DNA from: Zootoca vivipara
Lineage: Eukaryota
Length of the DNA: 64,000 nucleotides
Assembly (NCBI RefSeq): GCF_963506605.1
Contig: NC_083276.1
Coordinates: forward strand, 79,050,001-79,114,000
Direction: 5' to 3'
Every line of letters begins with the position of its first letter. Position 1 is the first letter of the stretch. A model generated the notes under the pieces. It did not search any database. It saw nothing but the letters and a program-made list of their open reading frames with translations, and was not told the origin of the DNA. Position numbers and translations under genes: made by a program. Shown here one piece after another: positions 1,902-59,601 of this stretch.

Positions 1902-4325
1902 ATGAAGCCAGCGCTTGTCCTTCTGCTCATCACCCTGGCATGTTGCTCCTCCTCTGGTAAGCATTACTAATGGCCTTCATTTCCTCAACAAACTGAAGGA
2001 GCAAAAATAGAACAATTCAGTGTAGTGTCTTCAGAAGGAACATTAGTAAACAAAGTGCCAGAGAGCCTCTGTGAAATGAACTCCAAAACCAGGACCCTTC
2101 AGGCATCGGGATCTTCCGGCAAACGGTACCACCTGCCCTCAGGTAGGTACACATGTGGCCAAATGCAAAGAGTTGTATTCAGCTGAGTTCTACGCACACC
2201 CATTGAAATTCAGGAACCTAAATTCATCCTATCCATTAACTTCAATGGGTCTACTTTGAGTAGAACTAGCACTGAAAACCACCTGATATGTGGAAAGGGG
2301 TCAGTTATGGATACCACTAGTAGCAAGTTTATGAGTCTGGATGGTTAGAGTGTGGGACAGCTGCATATTCCTGCACTGCAGGGGGTTGGACTTGATGATC
2401 CTCAGGTTCCCTTCCAATTCTCTGATTCTATAAAATTACTGGCTCTGACTGTTTTGATGCGAATTAGCAAGGATTGCTTGTGCATCTGGGAGAACAGTTG
2501 GGTTCAGAGGTTGTGACAGCAGAAGGAGCGTGAATAAAAGAAGTGTATGGGTTCAGGGAGAAGAAAGAATAGCTTTCAAAAAGGCTGGTAGTAGTATTCT
2601 GGAATCATGACCCACCTACTTACTTCAGGGAAATGGGGTGGTCCTCTCAGTGCCCAGAACAAGGAGACAAGGAGTTCTCCTGGACTAACTCCCAAGGGCC
2701 CTGCACTCAAGCACAGCCCAACCCAACCCAAGTTCTCTCAGGTGCAGATCCAATTGTGCTTCAAGGGGCTTAAAGGTAAAGGTGAAGGGACCCCTGACCA
2801 TTAGGTCCAGTCGTGACTGACTCTGGGGTTGCGGTGCTCATCTCGCGTTATTGGCCGAGGGAGCCGGTGTACAGCTTCCAGGTCATGTGGCCAGCATAAC
2901 TAAGCCGCTTCTGGTGAACCAGAGCAGCGCACGGAAACGCCGTTTACCTTCCCGCTGTAGCGCTACCTATTTATCTACTTGCACTTTGACGTGCTTTCGA
3001 ACTGCTAGGTTGGCAGGGGCAGGGACCGAACAACGGGAGCTCATCCCGTCGCAAGGATTCGAACCGCCGACCTTCTGATCGGCAAGCCCTAGGCTCTGTG
3101 GTTTAACCCACAGCACCACCTGACCCACGTCCTTACTCCCTTACTCATGAGGCTTACTCCCTAGTACCAGTAATTGTGTTTAGTTGCTTTTGTGCTCCTG
3201 CCTGGCAGCTCACAGGACTGAGCTCAGAAAGATCCAGTTTATGTTGGCTCTAGTAGTGACATCTGCATTCTGTGGTGAGCTCCAGTGTCATACTCAATGG
3301 CATCCAATTTAGAAGTTACTCAGTTCACAGGAAAGCTGGGCCAAAGTGGCTTTTGTGTTTTCTGGGGGGAGGCAGTGCTATGTGGAGGAAGCTTAATGTT
3401 TGAACGTTCCTTCCTGAATACACCACCTCCAGTGAGTGTGCCACCCTTTCATCATGGCTTCATGTCCCTGGCATGCAAACATAGCAATGAGCGAGTAAGC
3501 ATTACAGTCTTCCCTCATGTAGTGTCAGCAGAAGGAGGAGTGCTTCTCCCACCACAACTCTACAGAGTTGTAATTGGTATGCACACCATATAAGAGGTAG
3601 TGCATTCTCAGGTGAGTCACTACAACGGGTTTAAATAAAGCATGGATTTTTTAAAGAAATCTGGTTTTTATTTTTATTTTCTTCCTAGCTTCTTCTCATC
3701 AGTGTGCAGCTGTTCAAAATATTATGTCTCTAATGCTTCATGGATCACAGTCCGATGTGAAGAGTGCTCTTGAAAAACACTCTGCTTCATTGCTTGCAAT
3801 AACTGCTATAGCCACGTTGAAAAATAGTGTCGACAAATTGTCACAGGAGGAAAAAAATGGCTGGAAGACACTGGTGGTAATTCTGTCATTTTTTCTTGCT
3901 TGTTTTTTCCCAGGTTGAAGATTACAAACAGGTTCAGAATTTTCAAACTTTATCTACAGTCTGTTTGTAAAAAAATATATTACAGTACAGATCAAAAGTC
4001 AAACAGCCCTCTCTGTACACAAATCTATGCATAATCTCTCAATTTACACAGTATGCCTGTAAAATTATGAGGAAAGCCCAGGTCTGCCCACACTAAAGCT
4101 GGTCAACTGTTCCAATAGTCCAAGTCACAAAAAGAAGGCAAAGATATTCATTATTTCCACTTATCTGCCATGACGCAATTTCATACGCTTGGGGAAGCTG
4201 GAAGCTTATTAATACTTTTGTTCATCAAAAAGTACTCTGTGCTTTTGTCTCCTGCTTCTTTTACACTTCAACACCCTGTACTGACCTACATTTCATTTCA
4301 GGAAAAAGTGATGGAAAAATGCTAA
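1902..4325 (+). CDS. Secretoglobin-like protein, cluster gene 1 (88 aa); exons 1902-1956, 3689-3876, 4302-4325
   Basis: Kozak GCCACCATG, (TA)n TATA at ~1811-1826, GT-AG introns, coding exons 55/188/24 nt (the 55/188 split is the uteroglobin-family layout). Translation: MKPALVLLLITLACCSSS-ASSHQCAAVQNIMSLMLHGSQSDVKSALEKHSASLLAITAIATLKNSVDKLSQEEKNGWKTLV-EKVMEKC*. Confidence 0.88.
2772..3132 (-). mobile_element. Sauria SINE (Podarcis-type) in intron 1 of gene 1
   Basis: Reverse complement gives a tRNA-like head (GTGGGTTAAACCACAGAGCCTAGGGCTTGCCGATCAGAAGGTCGGCGGTTCGAATCC) and an (ACCTTT)n tail. Confidence 0.88.
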
Positions 4326-19977: not shown

Positions 19978-20641
19978 ACTATTATGAGAGATCAAGAACA
20001 GCTCACCTGGTTGGGTGGAGCTGCAACAACATTTGACAGAGGCAGCATCAATTCCATGTACTGGAAGGGGAAGGTGGTGGTGAGGTCAGGGCTGTGCAGA
20101 GCCAATCTAGTGCTTACGCTAATACGTCTGTGTGGCCTAGACGGAAAATGGTCTGAGCCTGTGCAAGGCAGCTTTGTGTGTTTGGTATTAAGCGTCTGAG
20201 GCAAATTTTGCACCTTCGTAGGCTGTAGAAGAGGAGCGCTCACAAGCATGCTATCTGGTGGATCAATGGATTGATCAACCCTTAAAACCTTTTCAGGAGA
20301 TCTTGTCAAGGATAAGGAACTTATGGCCCTCCAGATGTTTCTGGAATACAACATTCCTATGCCCTGTCTGTTGGTCATGCTTACTGAGTAGATCAGTAAT
20401 ATACGAGGAGGCTACAGCCACTTTACCCCAATGCTGCTGCTTGGAGGGTATTCCGCCTCTCTGGAGATAGGTACAGTACTGCCTTTTTCATGTACTCTTA
20501 TGAGAGATAGGCAGGCTGTTTGTACATCAAGAAGCAGAGCCAGCATGGCTTCTGCATGGACAAGCCCTTTCCGACGAAGCTATTAGATTTATTTTGGAGT
20601 GTCAACATGCATATAGATTGAACTGACCCAGTGATGTAGTG

Positions 20642-22440: not shown

Positions 22441-24025
22441 TGTCCTACCTCCAGAGGCAACATACATCTGAATCCCAGTTGCTGGGAGTTTTAGGTGAAC
22501 AGAGTGCTGTTGTCCAGCTCAAGTCCAACTTGCAGGCTTCTCATAGGCATCTGGTTGGCCCCTGTGAGAACAGCAAGCTGGACTAGATGGGCCATTGGTC
22601 TGATCCAGCAGGATCATCATATTATATATTCTTATGTTATGTTAAGAGTCCTACCAGGTTCAGAGAAGTGCAATATGCTGCAGTAAGAGTTCTTAAACAA
22701 GAGTGCAAGCCTTGTGGGACTAAACTGAATCCATTTCCCTGCAATATCCAATTACAGTGATTTGGCAAGAAAGAAGGTATAGAGATGGGGAGCTGCTTGG
22801 AGGAAGGAGTGCCCAGGTTAAAGATGCAACAAGGACAGATTGCATTTGAGCCTCCCAGCTGAGATTAGACAGGCTCTCTCCTTGCTGAACTTCAGGCACA
22901 TGACAAAAACTCCTTTATTTTAGCAGGCATTTTAAGGTAGTGTTTGGGTTCTGTTTGGTTTCATGCCAATTTCCTTAGAAACGGGTTGAATGTTAAATCA
23001 CTCTGAGAATCATAGCTATGGGAATAGGAGTCTCCTAAGAACTCTCAGAACCTTAATAAAGTATATTTCCCAGAATTCTTTGGGAGAAGCCACAACAGTT
23101 AAAGTGTTATTGATAGTGTTATAACTGTATTGTGCAGATGAGGCCACTGACTAGAGTCACATAATGCATTTGGCATTCTTTGTTCCTTATCAATTGCCAC
23201 AGACACAGTGTCCATATTGAAATGTTCGTCCTTTTGTTCATCATCCCTGGGCTAATCATATTGCCTGCAGAAAGGTCTTGTCTATTTTGAAAAAGTGGGC
23301 AAATGAACGGTGTTCTCTAGCTTATCGTTGCTCCCTTCCTTTAACCTTGTAATATAAGCTCCTGACTGTCTAGCACATGTCAGTATCATGAGCGTGCGAG
23401 GGCATTTACTCACATTTGTGGGGTGTGGGTGTGTGAGCATATCAATTCTATCAGCTGCATTCCTGTTCCTGGGATCAGAGCTGGGACCCATAAACTCTAC
23501 CATCTGCTTCCATGACTTTCTGGAATCAATGTATCTGACTGATCATTATGGCACTTTGTCCCTAGTACTAGCCACTCCCCCCCCCCACAAAAAAAGTTTG
23601 GAAGTTGGGGAAGCACAACTGCCTCTCTCTCAAGCTAGCAGCACAAGGGCCCTCTCTAAATTGTAGAGAAGGGCTGGGCCAGCAACTCTCTATTCAGAAT
23701 ATTCCTTCTTCTGCTCTAACACAGTCTCTGGCTGGCTCTAGGAAATCTCAAAGAGATCAGTGCAAAAGGCACACATTTAACAGCCTACAGGAATGAAACT
23801 TGAGCAAAGGAATGTAAGGCAGTAAATTTAATAATGATTTGGATATGACTGATTGCAGAACAGCACATGAGATTTCTCTAGGTTTTCTGTAGCATAATGA
23901 TTATTGCCCCACAGGGAGCTTCTTTGAACAATGACAGTGCAAGGGAAATAGAAGAATGGATCAATAATATGATATTTCAGGAATTGGTAGTCAGCTTGTG
24001 GAATCAGCGCAGCAACATCCGAAGA

Positions 24026-25623
24026 TCAGTTCTTCCAGTCTTTTTTGCAGCTGTGCATTAAGTTTTTCTGAAATTAAATGAAATCCGGGTGAGTACAGAA
24101 TGTTGAAGGAGAAAGAAGAAAGAAACCACAGGCATGCAGTGTAGCTCCAGTGAGTTTATGTACTGTACGTATTTTCATATACTCTTGCTCACCACTTAGA
24201 TANNNNNNNNNNNNNNNNNNNNNNNNNNNNNNNNNNNNNNNNNNNNNNNNNNNNNNNNNNNNNNNNNNNNNNNNNNNNNNNNNNNNNNNNNNNNNNNNNN
24301 NNNNNNNNNNNNNNNNNNNNNNNNNNNNNNNNNNNNNNNNNNNNNNNNNNNNGGGTTAATCTGAAGGGCCACCAAGGGCTGTACCAGGGCCTGCTGGTGA
24401 AGAATGGCTGGGAGATTAGAAAGGTAATGAACAGCTGGGAGAGGCACATCTATTGGCCATGAGGCTTCAGGGGTCCTTATGAATGAGGAGGAGGGGAAGG
24501 GGTGAGGTAGACAGGGCTTGAGGGAGTTCTAGTCGAGCCAACGCAAGGGTGTTGGACGAAAAAGTATTTGTGTCTTGGATTTAATCATCAGCCTGCTTCT
24601 CAAACAGTAGAAGATTGCCTCATGGGGTGGTATATTTGCCTCCTCTCTGTCAGTGGTGGAGCTTCAAGCTCTGGCGGGGTGGGGGGGTGGAGAGCAGGCA
24701 GGGGCATGGCTGGTGCGCATCCTGGGGGCATGGCATGCCGCCAGCGGGGGTGTGGCACCCAGTGAAGGGGGGGAGCTGTGATAGCACCCCACTGGGATCG
24801 TTCCTCCACCAGTACTCTCTGTACCTCAGTTTGCATGTATGGCATAGGGCATAGGCAACCTGCGTAATGACCGCTCTCCCATCAACCGGAGGGTGCCCTT
24901 TGCATGGCCACGCACAGTACCCTGATCCCTGAGACAATGGCAGAAGTTCCTGGTCCACCTCCCCACGTCACAGCCCTTTTTTGAGGTTCCTGCCAAACCT
25001 CAGTTTTAATAAACCTAGGTGGGGGGGGGAGTTTTTTTCCCCCAGTTCTGTATTTTGTACTCTAATAAATTCATAAATAAAAATGAAATAAAAAATTAGA
25101 TTGGAGGGAAAAACATATACATCCTGGGTTGGATTCAATTAACCCAGTTTGCTAGCAGAAGTCAGTGCACAGGCTCCCACTAGTGTAATATGACTCCGCT
25201 TCTACTCCCCCCCCCCATCCCTTCTGGGGGAGGTCAGGAGAACCCCCAGAACAGCATGCAGCAGGAGGAAAGAGGAGATCATTCTGTTTGGCAAGCACAA
25301 TATCATATTCCTCCCCCTGTCTCTTGTTATGCGTTAGAAGCACAAAAAGCCAGCCAGAAAAAGGACAATGCTTAAAATTACCAGAAGTTTCAAGTATTCC
25401 GAACGTTTCTCATCTGAAAATGTGTCAATAAGATCTTTTACGTCCTTTGCAGCTTGGATGCCATCTTCATTGTCTGAATAACGTTCAAGTTCTTCCAAAT
25501 ACTCAGAATCTGTTCCAGAAAACTTGGCACCCAGAAACTTCTCCATAGGTTTGCATGTTTTGTGGGAATCTAGGAAGAAGGAAAATAAAAACCCAAACAG
25601 GCTGTAAAAAACGCTTTAAACCT

Positions 25624-25673
<50 letters not shown>

Positions 25674-27148
25674 AAAAACTCTTCTTTAGGATGGTCATTA
25701 AAAAGTAAATAAAAACTAAGTGATAACTGGCTGGAAACATGATGGCTCACTTCAGACTGCCCTGCCCAGGATCCGGCTGGGATGCCAGAGAAGAAAACTG
25801 CGAGACAGAGGCATTTACGCCAGCAGATGCTACGACCTTGTCCACACTGGAGCAAAACATGGATTTGCACTTGCCTGTCTCTTCATTATTGCAAGGTTTT
25901 TCAATCCTGGCCTCTTCAGGCTTTCCAATTATTATTATTTTTTAAAAAAACCACATTAAAAGGAGGAAAGGTGTGGGACAACACTGAAATGGAGAGGGTG
26001 TAATGTGGACACTCCTACATTTTTGGGCGGGCAGGCAGGCGCAAATCTACGAAATGAGAGACAGAAGGAAGTGTTTCCATCATCTCCCTCCAGCCTAGCT
26101 AGGGACAGTGGAGAGGCATGCTGGTTTTCTCAGCCTCTGCACCTACCAGATGAATAGAGAAGGCAGGATGGAAGTGAGCATGTGCCTTCAGGCAGTGGCG
26201 CCCAATGCTCATGTCCACCCAGGTCTTTCTTGGGGAGAATACTGAGTGGCCGCCATATGAAATTCAGCTATGGGCTGGATCCGACCTATGGACAGGGGTT
26301 CCTTATACCTCCCTCACCCCCTCTGATAAAGGAGCACCCAAGATCTACCAAGGGGCAAGATAGGCTTGACCTCTATCTTATGCTCTCAGAAAAAAGTAAG
26401 CTAGTTAGGCAAATCTCTTTTGAGAAATTTATTTCACCAAACTAGAAGCAGGGTAAAAGTAATCTGACTTGGCTACTTGTTTAAGAATCAGATGTCTTAT
26501 TAATTCTTGCAATAAATGATGTTTTGCTTGAATTATAAGAATATGTTATCATTTCTGCTCTTAATTTTAATGACTGTAAAAATGTACAGCTATTCTGATG
26601 ATTCGTAATTTCCTAGATTGGAAGGTAATCTTTCTAAGCTCTGTTAAAGTAGGCTAGATAGATACATTCACGGATACCCAGGAACGTCACTAGGCTAGTG
26701 AGTCAATATTCATGGTTATTTTTTATTTTATTATTAATGATCAGGATTAAATACAACATCTTAAAGTTCACAATGCACATATTGTGCTTATATTCCATTT
26801 ACCCAAATATACTATGTTCACCGCAGACAGCATTAGGAGAGGTTGTCGCATTGGTGGGGGGGGGGAAAGACCACCTTTTATCCTGGGCCCCTGGTTGCTA
26901 CTGCAGCTACCTCAGGAGTGTATGCCTGAAGTGTCAGGTTCATGATTTTGCTGAAGTTCTCCTGCATCTCATTTGTAGATGCCATATCTGAAGACATTAG
27001 ACTGGATTATTTTAATATTTCTTCTTGAGGCAAAGAGCCATTAAGTGTCAAAGTGACAGATACCAGAGGAGTGATGCTTACCATGGTGATGTGCATCCAA
27101 GGAGCAGCATGCCAGGGCGAGGAGCAGAAGGACGAGTGTCAGCTTCAT
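24026..27148 (-). CDS. Secretoglobin-like protein, cluster gene 4 (98 aa, His-rich N-terminus); exons 27148-27082, 25569-25382, 24067-24026
   Basis: TATAAAT ~27211-27217 on -; exons 67/188/42 nt; intron 2 contains a 150-N gap. Translation: MKLTLVLLLLALACCSLDAHHH-DSHKTCKPMEKFLGAKFSGTDSEYLEELERYSDNEDGIQAAKDVKDLIDTFSDEKRSEYLKLL-KNLMHSCKKDWKN*. Confidence 0.85.
24203..24352. other. Assembly gap (150 N)
   Basis: Run of N inside intron 2 of gene 4. Confidence 0.99.
25629..25670. repeat. (TA)n microsatellite
   Basis: Read directly. Confidence 0.95.
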
Positions 27149-27366
27149 GGTGGAGAAGAAATCCCAGGATGGGTTCCAATACGCAGCAAAACTGTCTGGG
27201 GTGTGTGTTTATTTATACACACAGAGGAGGTAGCAAGAACCACTCCGCTCTCAACATGACACAGGAGCACACATGACCTTATTTACATTTCTCCTGGTAT
27301 TTACTTACTTAATGTATTTAACGGCAGGGCAACCTAACCGTGTCCTCTCAGAAGTAAGTCCTACTG

Positions 27367-40461: not shown

Positions 40462-43400
40462 TCAGTTTTGCAGGAGTTGCGGCTTTTCACATTCATGCAG
40501 GATATTTAACTGGAACAAAGATTGCCAATAGAAAGGTATGCTGTAATTCACATGGAGAATAGGGTAAAATCTATGGAGAATAGGGTATAATCATATCTAT
40601 CACTGATATGAAGACAGGAGTGCTTGGCGTGCTCTGGTCCACGGGGTCACAAAGAGTTGGACACGACTAAACGACTAAACAACAACAAATCTCTGATATG
40701 GTATGTCGTATCTAGGCTGTCCTAATCCAGCCACTGTTAGCCAACAGGTTAGCCACTGTGGTGCCTGTAAAAGGTCTCAGTAAATATCCCCTCAAAAATC
40801 TATATTGCACGAGAAAATGTTAGCTTTCCCTGCACAGTTCCTGTTTGCATTCACTCAGCCTCTCCAAGATGGACCATGCATGTCCCTTTAAACATGCTAC
40901 ATTTCAGGATTAGACACACACCCTCCCATCTGTGCTGAACAGGGGAGAGGTGCAAAGAGCTTCTCTCTGTGAGTGAGTGCAGCAGGGGCGAATATAGGTG
41001 AACCCCCCCCCGGCCTCCACTGAAGGAGATGGCTGATGGGGAGGAGGTCTGCACCATTTTGTGTCCTGTCTCTTTTTCTGCTCTTCTACATGTGGCAGCC
41101 ATTTTATAAGTAGAACCCTGTGCTTTCTCAAAATTCTGAATGTGTCCTCTAGCCCAGAAAGGTTGATAACTCCTGCCTTAATCTCAGAGATGGAATGTGC
41201 TTCTTTAATGTGGGAGCTTTAGCCCTTCACTACCAATCCTCATGGAGTGCCATGGAGTGCAAGAAGATCAAACCTATCCATTCTGAAGGAAATCAGCCCT
41301 GAGTGCTCACTGGAAGGACAGATCCTGAAGCTGAGGCTCCAATACTTTGGCCACCTCATGAGAAGAGAAGACTCCCTGGAAAAGACCCTGATGTTGGGAA
41401 AGATGGAGGGCACAAGGAGAAGGGGACGACAGAGGACAAGATGGTTGGACAGTGTTCTCGAAGCTACGAACATGAGTCTGACCAAACTGCGGGAGACAGT
41501 GGAAGACAGGAGTGCCTGGCGTGCTCTGGTCCATGGGGTCATGAAGAGTCGGACATGACTAAACGACTAAACAGCAAGAACCAATCCCCAGGAGCTGGAA
41601 ACCCTCATTGGTTGTAAAATATTCTTTCCTAGCAGAGATACACTTATGGTGCCAATTCTCTAATTTTTAGGCAACAGATGAAGACAGAACTTTTAATGGG
41701 TTGCTTTAATTCTTGGTGTTTCTCTGCTTTTATTACAACCTCTTTGCTATCTAATTAAACTTTCTCTGTGTGGTTCTTTTTTATTATCTGACTTTAGTAT
41801 TTATTATTGAATGAAAAATAAACAATACAATTAACTCATACAGGCACCCAGCCAGCTTATGCTGGAGTCATGATGTGATAAACAGCCATATCTGAACAAG
41901 GCCTCAGAGCCTACCGTACTTCCACTGAAACATATTGTGTCTGTGGTGATGTGAGGCGATGTGTCATAGCAGCTTTAGACCTTCAAGTCCTCAAATGATG
42001 AATATGCATTTGTGAATTTGCCCCAAACTGTGATTTAAGTGTTGGGTATATGTGTGTGAAAATAATTACCAGCACTTGGCTTTTTGCCATTCGAACGGAT
42101 TCCGGAAGCCCGACTGCGCATTGTTTAAGCACAGAAGCAGCTTCCTTCATTTCTTCGGTGGTGGCAAAGCGATCGATTGCTTTCATGTAGTCATCATGCG
42201 AGGCGAAAAGGTAGTTTGTGAGGGTATCAACCAGAAGAGGGCACGTTTTGATAGCAGTAGCTGGAAAGGAATGGAAAATGCTTGAAAATTAGATTTTGAG
42301 TGAGGAAATCTGAATTGTGATAAAAGTTAGCAGGCTTTGAACCAGTTAAGCATCACATGGCAAAACGCAGGTAGTGTAGCTTTGACTAGGGTATTCAAAT
42401 TAAGCAGGAACTATGAGTGCATGATTATATATCAAAAACCAAATATATAATAGATAAAAATATTTTTTAATTAATCTGTTACTTTTGTGAATCTGTCAGC
42501 TTTCCACTTTCTCACCTGCTAACTGACTCCCTAGGGTAGTTGCTATGTACTGAGCTGAATCCTAGAACAATAGGATTCAGAATCAGCGGGAGCTACCCAA
42601 TCCAACTCCAGGTGGAAGTGAATCCGCAACCTGATTGGCCTGCTGGAGCAGCCAATCAGGCGGCTGGCAGAAGTGAATCTGCTACCTGATTGGCCTGTAG
42701 GAGCAGCCAATCAGGCTGCAGGCAGAAGTCAATCCACAATATAATTGGCCCACAGGTGTAGCCCTGAAGTAGCCAATCACGCAAGGCCCATTGTGTAAAT
42801 AATGTATATAAGCAGATGGTTTTGGGAAAAGAGCCATTCGTCTTCTCTTCTTCTCCTTGATGAATATGAGCTGAATAAAGAGCATGAAATTCACTCTCGA
42901 CTCCGAGTATATTTCACTGGCGACGAAGGTGGGATCCTGCTGAGCTGACCGCCACCACGCACTGCACCGCAGCACCGCCACCTGCTGCACCGCTGCATCG
43001 CACCGTGCATCCAGGCTTCAGCTCCAGGACCCAAGGAACCCAGAATGGCAACCGACAGCAGCTTCTCGCCATTCAAACCAGCATCAGGAGACTGGGAAGG
43101 GTACGCCGCCCGTTTCAACTTCCTCCTGCAAGCGAAAGAAGTCACCAACGATGCCATGAAGAGGGCGACATTCTTCAGCGTCTGTGGAGAGGAGACGTTT
43201 GAAATTGCCCGGGCTCTCCTTGCACCTAGAGATGTCGCTACCGTCTCTTACAAAACAATAATGGAACGGCTGAAGGAGCACTTTTCACCACAGCCCTCGG
43301 TGGTAGCTTGCCGAAATGCCTTCTACGCAAAGCGGCAAGCCCCGGGGGAAACCATAACTGGGTTTGTGACCTCCCTCCGCCAAGCCGCCCGGTTATGCAA

Positions 43401-46400
43401 CTTCTCAGAGTTGGAGAACATGCTTCGTGACCGCCTCGTCGGTGGCCTGAGGGACGAGATGTTGCAACGACGCCTCTACGCCAAAAAAGACCTCACGTTC
43501 CAGATTGCTCTGGAGGAAGCCCTGGCAACCGAAGCCGCCGAGAGGTCAACGCAAGAGGCACGACCGGCCCCGCCATCCCAACCGAGGGTCTACCACGAAG
43601 ACCTCACCGACGAATCCGAATCTGACAGGGAGGAAGTACACCGTGTACAGCGGCGCACTCAAGCAGCACACACACCACAGCAGCCTCGACGAGAAGGAGG
43701 GAACTGTGCAAGCTGCGGGGAGAACCACGAGAGGAGGACCTGTCGTTTCCGCAACGCAGAGTGCAGGCAGTGCAGAAAATTGGGACACATCGCCCGGGTG
43801 TGTCGGGCTCGACTCACCCGTCGACAAGCATCAGATGACCGACCCAGGAGCCCCAGGGCACACGGCACCATGCACCAAGGCAACTCGACGGAGATCACGG
43901 GCTACCAGGTATTCCAGTTGCCCCATCCCAGCACAGAGAAAATTTATATAGAGGTACAGATAGAGGGAGCCCCATGCCGCATGGAGCTGGACACGGGTTC
44001 AACTCTATCCATAATCTCGGCCCGAACATTAAGGGAACTGTGCCCTAATGGGGGTCCCAAACTAAGGCCGGCCCCATTCACCCTCCGGGACTTCCAGAAA
44101 CGTAAGGTCCCTACAATGGGGGTGGGGACCTTCAGGGTGCAATATCGAGGGCGAAAGCAACAATTGGACTTGCTGGTAGTTAAGGGCCCCTACGTTAGCT
44201 TACTGGGACTGGCATGGTTTGGACCTCTGGGGCTAGCCGTTACCGGGGTGAACCGCACTAGCTTACAAGTGGACGTGGACGCCATATGCAAAGAGTTTCC
44301 AGGGGTTTTCGATGGGGCATTGGGACGATATACAGGACCCCCCATTGCCCTACAGCTAGACCCCGTTGTACGACCCATCAGGCACAAGGCCCGCCGGGTC
44401 CCGTTCGCCCTGAAACCCCGCATAGACGAGGAATTGGACCGGCTCGTGGAGCAAGGAGTGCTGGAGCCGGTGCCCAACGCCCCCTGGGAAACTCCAATTG
44501 TCACACCCGTCAAGCCTAACGGTTCGGTCCGCATCTGTGCAGACTACAAATGCACCATAAACAAGGCTCTCACGGCCCATGCATACCCAGTGCCAGTGGT
44601 CAGCCATGTCCTCGCCACCCTGGCTGGGTCAAAAATCTTTGGCAAACTGGACTTGGCCCAAGCGTATCAACAGTTGCCTGTGGACGAAGCCACAGCAGAG
44701 GCTCAGACGATTGTGACGCACAGAGGGGCATTCAGAGTAAAGCGGCTGCAATTTGGCGTTAGCGTGGCACCAGGCATATTCCAGAATCTAATGGACTCTC
44801 TCCTTAAAGGGATTCCTGGCGTCACCCCCTTCTTCGATGATGTACTGATCGCCGGGCCCACACCAGAGGAATTTGAGGACCGCCTCCGCTCCGTCCTGCA
44901 CCGTTTCCAGACGGCGGGCCTCAAGGTGAAGCGGGAAAAGTGTTTACTGGGAGTGCCGCAGGTGGACTTTCTGGGATTTAAGGTGGACGCAGAAGGGGTC
45001 CATCCAACTGGTGACAAGGTACGGGCCATTTGTGAGGCCCCAGCGCCCAAGAGCAAGCCCGAACTTCAGTCATTCTTGGGACTATTGAACTTTTACCATG
45101 CCTTCCTTCCCCATAAGGCAGCGGTAGCGGAGCCCCTACACAGACTCCTAGATAAAAGGGCCCCTTGGGTGTGGGGCCAGCGACAAAGGGCCGCATTCCA
45201 GGCAGTCAAGGACTTGCTCGTCTCGAACTCGGTCTTGGCACACTTCGACGAGAGGCTGCCAGTGGTGCTGGCATGCGACGCCTCTCCCTATGGCATCGGC
45301 GCTGTCCTGGGACACCAACTCCCGGATGGAAGAGAGGTGCCGGTGGCATACTTCTCCCAGACGCTTGCTGCAGCCGAACGAAACTACTCACAGATTGACA
45401 AGGAGGGTCTGGCAATCGTGAAGGGCGTAAAAAAATTCCATGATTTCTTGTACGGGCGGCCCTTTACCATAGTGACTGACCACAAGCCGTTGCTTGGCCT
45501 GTTTGCCCCCGAGAAGCAGACCCCCCAAGTGTTGTCTCCACGTGTCCTCAGGTGGTCAATTTTCCTTGCCGGCTACCAGTATGCACTAATCCACCGCCCT
45601 GGGAAGGCGATGGGCCACGCAGACGCACTCAGCAGGCTACCACTACCAGAAACAGGCCCCGACCCAGCGCCTGCGCAAGAGGTTATGACCCTGGAGCTGC
45701 TTCCCGACCGACCCATTCAGGCACAAGAAGTTGCGCACCATTCCACAAAAGATAGGGTCATCTCCCGGGTCCTGGACTGGGTGTGGCGAGGATGGCCCAG
45801 CAGCAGCCCCGGGCCAGAATTCGCTGGCTACACAAACCGCAAACATGAACTGTCGGCCCACAAGGGGTGCCTGTTATGGGGAAGCAGGGTTGTTGTTCCC
45901 CAGCCCCTCCGCAAAAGGGTCCTCACAGCCCTACACGAGACACACCCAGGGGTAGTGAGGATGAAGGCCCTTGCCAGGAGTTATGTGTGGTGGCCGGGGA
46001 TTGACAGAGAGATAGAGGCCTGGGTCCAACACTGCCAGACCTGCCAAGAATCCCGCCCGGATCCCCCAAGGGCCCCAGTCCAGCCCTGGGAGTCCGCCCG
46101 ACATCCATGGTCACGCTTGCACGTGGACTTCGCTGGCCCCTTCCAGGGAAAAACATTCTTCATAGTGGTGGATTCCTACACCAAATGGCTGGAGGTCGCA
46201 CTGGTACCGTCCACTTCTACGGCGGCAGCCATCCGGGTACTACGTAAGCTGTTTGCAACCCACGGGCTCCCTGACACCCTCGTCTCGGACAATGGAACCG
46301 CATTCACGTCAGAGGAGTTCCAGACCTTCACAGCGCAGAACGCCATCCGCCACATCCGCTCAGCACCATTCCACCCTGCCACCAATGGCCAAGCGGAGCG

Positions 46401-49305
46401 CATGGTGCGGACCACCAAGGACAGCCTCCGCCGCATAACACAAGGGGACTGGGAATACCGCCTTGCCGCATTTCTTCTAGCACAGCACAGCACCCCAAGC
46501 ACAACGACGGGCCGGAGCCCAGCTGAACTACTCATGGGCCGGCGCCTTGCAACTAGACTGGACCGACTTCACCCCGACAGAGCTCAGGATGAGGTAGTGG
46601 TGGGGAATGGCAGGAACCCCCGGACATTTGTGGCCCAGGACCCAGTGTATGCAAAGAATTTTGGGGCAGGCCCAGCATGGGTACCCGCCACAGTCACCAA
46701 GGTGACCGGTCCCGTGTCGTACGAGGTACTAACGGAAGGGGGGCAATGTTGGCGCCGCCACTGCGACCAGCTACGGCGACGATTCCCAGGAGGAACCCGG
46801 GAGGAGAGCGGGACAGAGGGGTCCCAAGGGGACAGCAGGGCAGTGAGGCCTGTAGAGCGAGAGGGGTGGGCAGGGGAAGCAGAAGCAGTAGGCACAGAGG
46901 GGCACCCTGAGGCTGGAAGGACACCGGAACCAGAGTCACAACCTAGTGGTTCAGTGGCGCCAGACCAGACAGCCCCGGCACAGCCAGCAGCCTTGGAACA
47001 CGAGCCAGAACCAGAACCCCTGACCAAGGAACACCCCAGGCCACAACGCACACGGAGGCGGCCAGCAGACCTTGGGGACTACGAATGCAACTTCCCGGGC
47101 AGGACTGGAACTTAGAGGGGAGGGGTGCTATGTACTGAGCTGAATCCTAGAACAATAGGATTCAGAATCAGCGGGAGCTACCCAATCCAACTCCAGGTGG
47201 AAGTGAATCCGCAACCTGATTGGCCTGCTGGAGCAGCCAATCAGGCGGCTGGCAGAAGTGAATCTGCTACCTGATTGGCCTGTAGGAGCAGCCAATCAGG
47301 CTGCAGGCAGAAGTCAATCCACAATATAATTGGCCCACAGGTGTAGCCCTGAAGTAGCCAATCACGCAAGGCCCATTGTGTAAATAATGTATATAAGCAG
47401 ATGGTTTTGGGAAAAGAGCCATTCGTCTTCTCTTCTTCTCCTTGATGAATATGAGCTGAATAAAGAGCATGAAATTCACTCTCGACTCCGAGTATATTTC
47501 AGTAGTATATGAAGCAGCAGGCCAGATTCCATGACCTTGAATGACAAGGATTTTAGTATTTCAGTTATGTCCATAAATTGGAACTTGGGGTGGGAGGCCG
47601 GGTGGCCAGGGGGCACATTTGATCTTCTACTCCAGAAATGGATCCAGAAATAGATCCAGGCACCAATCTTCTTAACCTCCTCACCATACCACCAAAATCC
47701 TCTTGAGACTCTCACACAGAATTCACCTACTCTTTTTAGGGTGTGCAAACACGGCATGATTATGTACATTCAGTGCTGGATACAGTTGCTAACAGGTGCC
47801 ATGTCATCCCTGTCCCAAATTATTTGTTGATCTAAAACACATTCTGCTGGAACAGTTATAATCTGTTCTGCACCGATAATGCACTTCTTAAGTGCTTGCT
47901 GCCTATGTGCGCCTATGGACATTGCAGGGCTGTGCCACTTGCCCTCATCATATTTAACTTGTCTTTGAATGAAACAGGCAAATTAAGAAGCAGTGCAGTC
48001 ATTTAGCCTCCTCTGTATACTAGAATATATCCACAGCATATCAACACCCCGGTTTCCATCCCCTCTTTTGAAAGGCTATTATGTGTATATATGGTCTGTA
48101 GTGATGTATGGAAGTGAGAGCTGGACCATAAAGAAGGCTGATCGCCGAAGAATTGATGCTTTTGAATTATGGTGCTGGAGGAGACTCTTGAGAGTCCCAT
48201 GGACTGCAAGAACATCAAACCTATCCATTCTGAAGGAAATCAGCCCTGAGTGCTCACTGGAAGGATAGATCGTGAAGCTGAGGCTACAATACTTTGGCCA
48301 CCTCATGAGAAGAGAAGACTCCCTGGAAAAGACCCTGATGCTGGGAAAGATGGAGGGCACAAGGAGAAGGGGACGGCAGAGGATGAGATGGTTGGACAGT
48401 GTTCTCGAAGCTACGAACATGAGTTTGACCAAACTGCGGGAGGCAGTGGAAGACAGGAGTGCCTGGCGTGCTCTGGTCCATGGGGTTATGAAGAGTCGGA
48501 CACGACTAAACGACTAAACAACAACAAATGGTCTGTTCCAACACTTGAGTGAAATAGAGAATGTGAAATAGAGCAATGGCACACAAGTTTGAAAACAAGC
48601 CCACCTGTGTGTACAGACAACAGGGGTAGTAGCTGCAGCTTTATATGATGTTATTGCATCAAGGCATGTACAATTGCAAACTGCTGTGTACAAAAAACCC
48701 AACCCCTGTGTGGTTTCAAAGACTACATGTGTACGCATCCTTATTCTTTCCCAACCCTATATTTTGGGGTCACCCTTGGGATAGGCGACTTCTAGCTTTC
48801 TCTCTCTCAGGTAGAATCACTGTAATAATAACAAAAGACTGGAGCTATTTACACCTCTGCAAGACACTCCCTCTGTTTTGACCAAGTTGTCTTCTAAATA
48901 ACTCCAGCACTAAGCAGCTGGTGCAGGGTAGCCTTTGCGTATAAACATAACAGTCTTACCCAGAATACCTATGGGGTGAAATTCCCCCCCCAACACGTCC
49001 AGAGAAAACTGTATGAGCAAAAATGAGCACATAAGCCCAGATCCATTTACTCACAACACCGGGTGCTAATAAGCAGTTGTGAATTGTGAGTGGGGCAGAG
49101 CCATCCTCCTAACATTGGTGTCACTGCATCCTAGCTGGGCAAGGCTAGGATGAGGTAGAGTAGGGAGCGTCAAGGTCAGAGCCGCATGGGTATGCCAATG
49201 GAAACTCTGGATTGGCTGTGCTGGTGCACCCATCCTGCCACAGAGGTATCAGGGCAAGGTGCAACAATGCTGACTTTGGAGGGTGGCTCCATCCAACCAC
49301 ATGAG

Positions 49306-57958: not shown

Positions 57959-59601
57959 ATTACAGGATTAAATACAGAGAATATGTATGGGAAGAATATC
58001 AAGTAATTCAAGACAAAAATGCCCTCCTTGGTCAATGGGTGAACCTAAACAGAAGGTACACCCATCTCTTGATCATTCAGAAACATTGCCTGCTGGAAGA
58101 GAAGCAGCATGAAATCATGTCCACAGGAAGGAAACATGCCAACATGATGGGCAAGCAAGCCAGTCCAGGTAGTGTTGCAGCTTTATTTGATGCTGATGAA
58201 AACAGAGTGAACCCTAGAACTGTTGTGCTCCAAGGGCCTGCTGGGATTGGAAAAACAATGACCGCGAGGAAGATTATGTTGGACTGGGCAGTTGGCAAAC
58301 TCTACCAAGGCAAGTTTGATTATGCATTCTACATAAACTGCAGAGAAATTAACTTGATGACTGAGCAGCATAGTCTGATAGATTTAATCTTTTGGAACTG
58401 TCCTGAGAGAAATGCTCCCCTGGAAGATATTTTTTCAAATCCAGAGAGGCTTCTGTTCATAATCGACGGTCTTGATGAACTGAAATTTCCCTTAGAATCC
58501 AATGGGGAACACCTGTGTTTTGATCCTAGTCAAAAGAAGCCGGTGAAAGTTGTACTGAGAAGTTTAGTCAAGAAAAGCATTCTTCCCAAATCATATTTAA
58601 TCATCACTACAAGGCCAATTGCTCTGGAGCAACTGCAGAAGTATCTGAAGTATCCCCGCCACATAGAGATCCTGGGGTTTTCTGAGAAGGACAGGGAAGA
58701 GTATTTCCACAAGTATTTTGGGAACGAGAGGCAAGGGGTACAAGCTTTTGGGGTTGTGAAAGCAAATGAGATGCTCTTCACCATGTGCTTTGTCGCCATT
58801 GTGTGTTGGATCATCTGCACTGTGATGAAGCAACAGATGGATAGAGGAGAAGATCTTGTGCAGACTTCAAAAACAACTACCTGTGTATACATGTTTTATT
58901 TAACTAGCTTACTCGGAGATCACAGTCCAGTGTTGGAAAGAGGTAAACAGAAACATTTCCAAAACCTTTGTCTCTTAGCCAGAGAAGGAGTCTTGACAAG
59001 GAAAATACTCTTTGAGGATGATGACCTCCAAAAACATGGCTTAAATGAGGCTGACATCCGGTCACTCTTCCTTCACAAGCAACTTTTCCAGCAAGATATT
59101 GATTGCCAATCTGCCTACAGCTTCATCCACTTAAGTTTCCAAGAGTTTTTTGCAGCCTTGTCCTACGTGCTAGAGGAAATACCAGAAATTGTCAATAAAT
59201 CAGATTGTTGTTATGAAGACGTGAGAAAGTTGCTAAAAGATTTTGGAGAGGGTGGAAATGAGTACTTAGTGTTGACAGTCCGCTTTCTGTTTGGTCTTTT
59301 AAATGAAAAAATGAGGAAAACCATAGAGAAAAGTTTAGGCTGTAAAATTTGTTCAGAAATAAAACAAGTGCTTTTGGACTGGATCGAAGCTGAGGTGGCA
59401 TCAAAGAGCTGTCAAAAGAAATCTGAGATATTCTGTTGCTTATATGAGATTCAAGAAGAAGAGTTTGTGGGAAGAGCAATGGATTGTATCCCCGAGATTA
59501 AGCTGTATGATAACTGCCTAGGGAACGCATTCAACTCTCTGGTTATTTCATTTTGCCTGAGACACTGTCGTAAAGGACAGTCCTTTCATCTAGGACAGTG
59601 A
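57959..59601 (+). CDS. NLRP FISNA-NACHT-HD1/WHD/HD2 exon, ending at a transposon-supplied TGA
   Basis: DYRIKYREYV (FISNA), Walker A GPAGIGKT, Walker B LLFIIDGLDEL, sensor ITTR, VCWIIC, FIHLSFQEFFAAL, FLFGLLN, CLYE; phase-1 acceptor TTAG ending 57958. Confidence 0.93.

Follow-up and report, generated by a model that had tools for sequence, protein, structure and literature searches.

The functions of the secretoglobins are largely unknown, and a member with a candidate Cu/Zn site would provide a cheap experimental handle on them. The closest described structure to the protein studied here is uteroglobin (CC10, SCGB1A1; PDB entries 1utg, 1utr and 1ccd), which has the same fold, the same two terminal cysteines and no central cysteine, but no histidine arm. 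SCGB1A is treated as restricted to mammals in the family survey of Karn and Laukaitis (2025; PMC11884772), where only two genes are listed per Podarcis species and the origin of a novel wall lizard clade is left as a question; the string "synten" is absent from its text.

The closest analogues of the N-terminus are serum albumin, the histatins and a MUC7 fragment, HHHQSPK, which carry the ATCUN motif, that is, a free amine and a histidine at position 3 (PMC11962837). HHHQSPK was the best Cu(II) binder of three MUC7 fragments and formed an albumin-like 4N complex at pH 7.5-10.3 (PMC11200262). Free N-termini and metal complexes have been measured for these analogues, whereas those of the protein described here are predictions. 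No metal-binding secretoglobin with a histidine arm was found in the published literature searched.

Gene structure and fold of a lacertid secretoglobin

In the genomic model, gene 4 is an intact three-exon secretoglobin gene on the minus strand of the window, the stretch of 64,000 nt that was analyzed (Table 1). The introns are in phase 1 and then phase 0 with canonical splice sites, as is the criterion for secretoglobins in PMC11884772, and the coding exons (67, 188 and 42 nt) and the 98-aa product are close to family sizes. The original prediction located the gene at positions 25540..27148, an interval that does fall on it but leaves out exon 3 entirely and the greater part of exon 2. The cluster comprises nine gene models, seven of which have an exon 1 of 55 nt and one an exon 1 of 52 nt, as against 67 nt in gene 4. 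The predicted length of 67 nt was thus correct, whereas the 55 nt with which it had been compared is a local norm only; the usual length in the family is 61 nt (Karn and Laukaitis, 2025; PMC11884772), to which gene 4 adds 6 nt. The splice that had been proposed from exon 1 was recovered in the genomic model, in which residues 18-28 read DAHHHDSHKTC. A stretch of N at positions 24203-24352 lies inside intron 2.

Table 1. Features of gene 4, with positions counted from the first letter of the window.
Feature	Position	Strand	Description	Basis
Exon 1	27082..27148	-	67 nt, from ATG to phase-1 GTAAG donor; signal peptide and Asp-Ala-His-His-His	
Exon 2	25382..25569	-	188 nt; encodes D-S-H-K-T-C28 and all four uteroglobin helices; without central Cys	
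Exon 3, coding part	24026..24067	-	42 nt; 13 aa and stop; His90 and distal Cys92	
TATAAA box	27212..27217	-	69 nt upstream of the ATG	Sequence
ATTAAA, candidate polyadenylation signal	23827..23832	-		Sequence
Acidic 17-mer, residues 43-59	25460..25510	-	Net charge -7; trait common to paralogs	Sequence
Codons 18-22 (D-A-H-H-H)	27083..27097	-	8/15 match to the 15 nt from the last base of the exon, with a 6-nt run	
Candidate in-frame alternative donor, GT after nt 85	27056..27066	-	7/11 consensus matches, compared with 8/11 for the main donor	

Exon 2 matches the Pfam Uteroglobin family (PF01099) with an E-value of 3.4e-10, and the ortholog from Podarcis lilfordi, CAI5763088.1, matches it with an E-value of 8.8e-16. 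An AlphaFold model of this ortholog, based on an alignment of 10 rows, has four helices and a mean pLDDT of 71, with the low-confidence residues 17-24 placed before the helices. The top Foldseek match of the model was 1utg (probability 1.0, rmsd 1.3, E = 0.04), and the best nine of nine fold matches in PDB were uteroglobin or Fel d 1 chains, none of which had an E-value below 0.001. Uteroglobin was the best PDB match to gene 4 both in sequence (E = 4.6e-7) and in fold. The terminal cysteine pair is present (Cys28 proximal, Cys92 distal) and the central cysteine is absent, and the protein is likely to form a disulfide-linked dimer. Family, exon and phase pattern, fold and cysteine pair thus agree with the description of gene 4 as a secretoglobin with a histidine-rich N-terminal extension.

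At the uteroglobin pocket positions that serve as criteria in PMC11884772 (F6, L13, Y21, F28, M41, I63 and K42), residues M31, Y46, Y53, V66, L88 and K67 of gene 4 fit, which accounts for five of the six pocket positions and for K42, while L13 of uteroglobin corresponds to Lys38. This lysine (window 25523-25525) is retained in both other gene-4 records, and the position is hydrophobic in the five other paralogs of the window. Lys38 may suit an anionic ligand.

The histidine run, its conservation and its origin

Four histidines precede the first mature cysteine in gene 4, as compared to one in gene 1 and none in the other seven paralogs, and the run is therefore distinctive of gene 4. The very acidic core that was originally pointed out as following it is present, just below the coordinates given at the time, but it is not special to this gene: the acidic 17-mer of P. 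muralis XP_028563307 has the same net charge of -7, those of two local paralogs have -6, and genes 3 and 5 are more acidic than the mature chain of gene 4 (pI 5.7-5.9). The acidic core was rejected as a special feature since the paralogs carry a comparable net charge.

Word-index and full HMMER searches gave Podarcis records, four Logan proteins and one unrelated repeat protein, with CAI5763088.1 as the only full-length ortholog found. This protein is identical to gene 4 at 92 of 98 residues, including the first 28, contains the same splice in an independent gene model, with the same 22 residues encoded by exon 1, and is the sister of gene 4 in the tree (support 96/90). The histidine run, the presence of which in other lacertids had been suggested as a check, thus occurs unchanged in P. 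lilfordi. The supplement of Karn and Laukaitis (2025; PMC11884772) labels CAI5763088.1 as SCGB1D, within the wall lizard clade; no function is given for it there, and the words "histidine" and "metal" are absent from the main text. The gene 4 type has accordingly been catalogued already, while its histidine arm appears to have gone unremarked. The neighboring protein CAI5763087.1 is named "1D member 2-like" at NCBI and SCGB2A in the same supplement, and the labels of the two proteins may have been crossed.

We compared the divergence of this genome from the Podarcis records with that of the Podarcis records among themselves, which was 5/73 (0/73) for gene 6, 9-10/76 (1/76) for gene 3, 10-11/66 (1/66) for gene 1 and 16-20/74 (4/74) for gene 5. 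For gene 4 there were 4-6 changes, compared with 1/55 among the other records, one of them a Logan protein. In all five genes the first divergence was several times the second, and the distance of P. lilfordi from this genome is 5-10 times that between Podarcis species (e.g., genes 6 and 3). Since we infer that the genome is that of a lacertid outside the Podarcis group, and the arm is present in both, the arm would predate their split. Genes 5 (window 35398-33600) and 1 (window 1902-4325) diverge far more strongly than genes 4 and 6 from the nearest Podarcis records; two additional copies of gene 5 are present locally, and the orthology of gene 5 to Podarcis is uncertain. The divergence of these two genes suggests birth-and-death evolution or positive selection, as in mouse Abp.

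The identity of the first 28 residues in two lineages argues against the reading that the arm is a neutral passenger, in which a 15-nt copy of the splice donor was exonized and tolerated as an appendage of an ordinary, lipid-carrying secretoglobin, and binding of metals in vitro would be incidental. The comparison has little power, however: the changes relative to P. lilfordi number 0/28 in the N-terminal residues and 6/70 elsewhere (Fisher p = 0.18), and zero changes in eight residues have a probability of 0.6 at the average rate of gene 4. The N-termini of other genes are nearly as constant (gene 6, 0-1/25; gene 2, 1/23), and gene 4 is overall no more conserved than gene 6 (92/98 and 91/97 identical residues, respectively). 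The excess conservation of the histidine tail is thus not significant, and the tail lies in the low-confidence part of the AlphaFold model, both of which are consistent with a neutral tail. The N-terminus that had been described as "gained" stands as a lineage-specific variant that may or may not be adaptive.

Behind the 67-nt donor, the start of the intron resembles that of the corresponding introns in genes 3 and 5, which indicates that this donor is the homologous, ancestral one, with the additional bases located on its upstream side. In-frame translation of the donor region yields G-K-H-H in genes 3, 4 and 5. The self-match of codons 18-22 at a lag of 15 nt (Table 1) has a p-value of 0.017 for that lag and of about 0.08 over the five in-frame lags, and in the same test at the donors of eight paralogs the best p-value was at least 0.13. 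It is plausible, although the signal is weak, that the histidine codons arose as a tandem duplicate of the donor region, which was exonized after loss of its GT and has since decayed. If so, the arm would be a modest case of intron sequence giving rise to a binding motif. That no such match is seen at the paralog donors favors the neutral reading, which on the other hand requires seven later substitutions after the duplication and leaves out the fourth histidine, which is contributed by exon 2, outside the insert. In view of all of these data, we regard a neutral tail as a real but doubtful possibility.

A possible precedent for a donor duplication, the alternative exon 1 of gene 1 in RefSeq isoform X1, was rejected, as it resembles donor read-through only at the protein level. 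The Podarcis annotation corresponding to window 2076-2140 contains an odd alternative first exon for gene 1 that lacks a signal peptide, and that at window 20007-20249 contains a 175-aa model for gene 3, CAI5763089.1, which apparently starts in intergenic DNA.

Use of the in-frame GT at nt 85 in place of the nt-67 donor would add six residues, two of which are histidines, and produce a six-His arm. A product that differs from the model in this manner, or a silent gene, is hardly to be expected, since the nt-67 donor is both the homologous one and the better match to the consensus, neither the frame nor the TATA box nor the splice sites are disrupted, and P. lilfordi retains the frame. No RNA cover was found on the exons of gene 4 in three raw runs (X7-X9, about 6% of each read) or in two contig runs (X10 and X13), as might be expected of a silent gene, but because the tissues of these runs are unknown this is not evidence of silence. 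No secretoglobin term occurred in the supplementary data of a proteome of Lacerta agilis femoral glands or of a pregnancy transcriptome of a viviparous lizard.

An orphan copy of the 5' part of gene 4 is located at C1:79032736-79032802. It consists of the promoter, an exon 1 that differs from that of gene 4 at a single, synonymous position (66 of 67 nt identical) and a portion of intron 1, and the next gene begins without an intervening exon 2. In principle, splicing from the phase-1 donor of this copy to the exon 2 of the downstream paralog would give that protein a histidine arm. Among the changes listed for the DNA runs X1, X5 and X6, none falls in the histidine codons; one is synonymous and matches the orphan copy.

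Signal-peptide cleavage and candidate metal binding

Candidate cut sites of the signal peptidase were scored with a von Heijne weight matrix. In this matrix, the four best-scoring cuts were those after Cys15 (12.1), Leu17 (10.4), Ala19 (10.0) and Ser16 (8.6), while cuts after residues 18 or 20-26 had strongly negative scores. An Xaa-Xaa-His terminus is exposed by two of the four, and the top-scoring cut after Cys15 gives no ATCUN motif, but these scores cannot decide the site, since near ties were obtained for most paralogs too. Mature chains that start at residue 18, 19, 20 or 23 would all begin with Xaa-Xaa-His, so that the likeness to the ATCUN proteins and peptides, with the histidine at position 3, applies to cuts after residues 17, 18, 19 and 22. 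In rat uteroglobin, the difference between a precursor of 96 aa and a mature protein of 77 aa places the cut at an alanine three residues past the CC motif; Ala19 of gene 4 lies four residues after CC. A His-His-His start is favored over Asp-Ala-His for this reason, and a cut after Ala19, with an ATCUN-type terminus, is our best guess, with about an even chance of being correct. Trimming of Asp-Ala by a dipeptidyl peptidase would be a conceivable second route to the same start.

D-A-H is the classic ATCUN motif, with which serum albumin begins, and the cut after Leu17 that would expose it in gene 4 has the second-best score. Leucine at position -1 is rare, however, with a count of 1/161 in the matrix, and the score of this cut derives from the hydrophobic core rather than from the cut site itself, which makes an albumin-like start improbable. 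Of the two cuts originally proposed, before Asp18 and after Ala19, both would indeed yield Xaa-Xaa-His, but the former depends on this disfavored leucine. A cut after either Cys15 or Ser16 is, taken together, a possibility of some weight; after Ser16 the ATCUN site would be lost, whereas a cluster of four histidines would be left and metal binding could still occur. Overall, an ATCUN-type start of the mature protein is plausible. In gene 1 (window 3689-3705), a cut after Ala19 would give a Ser-Ser-His start, an incidental ATCUN-type terminus without counterpart in the Podarcis orthologs; motifs of this type therefore arise by chance.

The His-His-His start that a cut after Ala19 would produce is also that of the MUC7 fragment HHHQSPK, and because this fragment binds copper, a chain starting at His20 would very likely do so chemically as well. 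Irrespective of the cut site, Zn or Ni could be bound by the cluster of four histidines. In the mechanism that we propose, the lengthened exon 1 would place a flexible histidine-rich arm in front of the uteroglobin fold, cleavage by the signal peptidase, probably after Ala19, would free the His-His-His end, and this end would take up a single Cu(II) or Ni(II) ion as an ATCUN site or, by way of its imidazoles, Zn(II). The setting would probably be a disulfide-linked dimer in a mucosal secretion, and the likeliest role would be the scavenging or buffering of metal in mucus, with the core carrying lipid, rather than the killing of microbes. That the arm of gene 4 binds metal in a way that matters is, in our judgment, not far from an even proposition.

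An antimicrobial ATCUN protein, or the precursor of a released histidine-rich peptide like the histatins and the MUC7 fragment, would accord with the occurrence of ATCUN motifs in antimicrobial peptides (PMC11962837) and with the weak inhibition of one species, S. sanguinis, by HHHQSPK and its Zn complex (MIC 125-500 ug/mL; PMC11200262). Activity was tied to positive charge in that study, while the mature chain of gene 4 would have a charge of -2.8 to -4.1 at pH 7 (pI 5.7-5.9), and its tail contains two aspartates and one lysine. The histatins are cationic peptides, unlike the anionic, folded protein predicted here, which is for this reason a poor candidate. The antimicrobial function suggested in the original prediction is thus poorly supported, and we regard it as highly improbable.

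A more far-reaching version of the metal-binding reading, which we consider unlikely, is that a donor duplication in lacertids gave rise to a copper-binding arm that was then selected, in what would be the first metallo-secretoglobin. Its product would be a dimer that carries a lipid or odorant in a lysine-modified pocket and bears one ATCUN site at either end, close to His90 of the partner; it would have been born in a bloom of genes at the SCGB1C1/RYD5 locus and would serve to supply or scavenge copper in nasal, vomeronasal or skin secretions.

The gene cluster and the SCGB1C1 neighborhood

A genome-wide search with PF01099 produced 10 matches, and the nine exons above the cut-off were all located within C1:79.02-79.09 Mb. 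The cluster is flanked on one side by a sperm-tail-repeat gene similar to ODF3 (SHIPPO repeat, E = 0.004, below the cut-off) and a Ric8 gene (E = 1.8e-38), and on the other side by a PYRIN-NACHT gene. Beside the ODF3-like and Ric8 genes lies an exon without a Pfam match that we take to be BET1L-like. The whole block covers C1:78985889-79109598, that is, to position 59598 of the window. In cattle, a single row of a GWAS table contains SCGB1C1, ODF3, BET1L, RIC8A, SIRT3, PSMD13, COX8B and NLRP6 (PMC10804543), and in a human GWAS, the ODF3/BET1L/RIC8A/SIRT3 locus has effects on SCGB1C1 and NLRP6 (PMC12644194). The match of the ODF3-, BET1L- and RIC8-like flanks to the cattle and human loci places the lacertid cluster in the neighborhood of mammalian SCGB1C1.

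Synteny thus assigns the whole lacertid repertoire, with its database labels SCGB1D and SCGB2A, to the SCGB1C1 locus, a result that is relevant to the ancestry of the wall lizard clade and that may outweigh the histidine arm for specialists. The top ESM Atlas cluster for gene 4 was likewise SCGB1C1 (0.93), nearly tied with SCGB1D4-like and mammaglobin-B-like clusters. Gene 4 shares its surroundings with SCGB1C1/RYD5 but differs from it in having the terminal cysteine pair, which SCGB1C is described as lacking (PMC11884772), and because both of these cysteines are present we did not classify it as SCGB1C.

The outermost paralog of the cluster (C1:79020277-79021088) has an exon 1 similar to that of its neighbor and an exon 2 closest to that of gene 2, without a central cysteine; no convincing exon 3 was found for it, and the paralog may be chimeric or in decay. 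The first intron of gene 6, which is 7.8 kb long, contains an LTR-retroelement open reading frame of 1388 aa (window 42949-47112) with protease, reverse transcriptase, RNase H and integrase domains.
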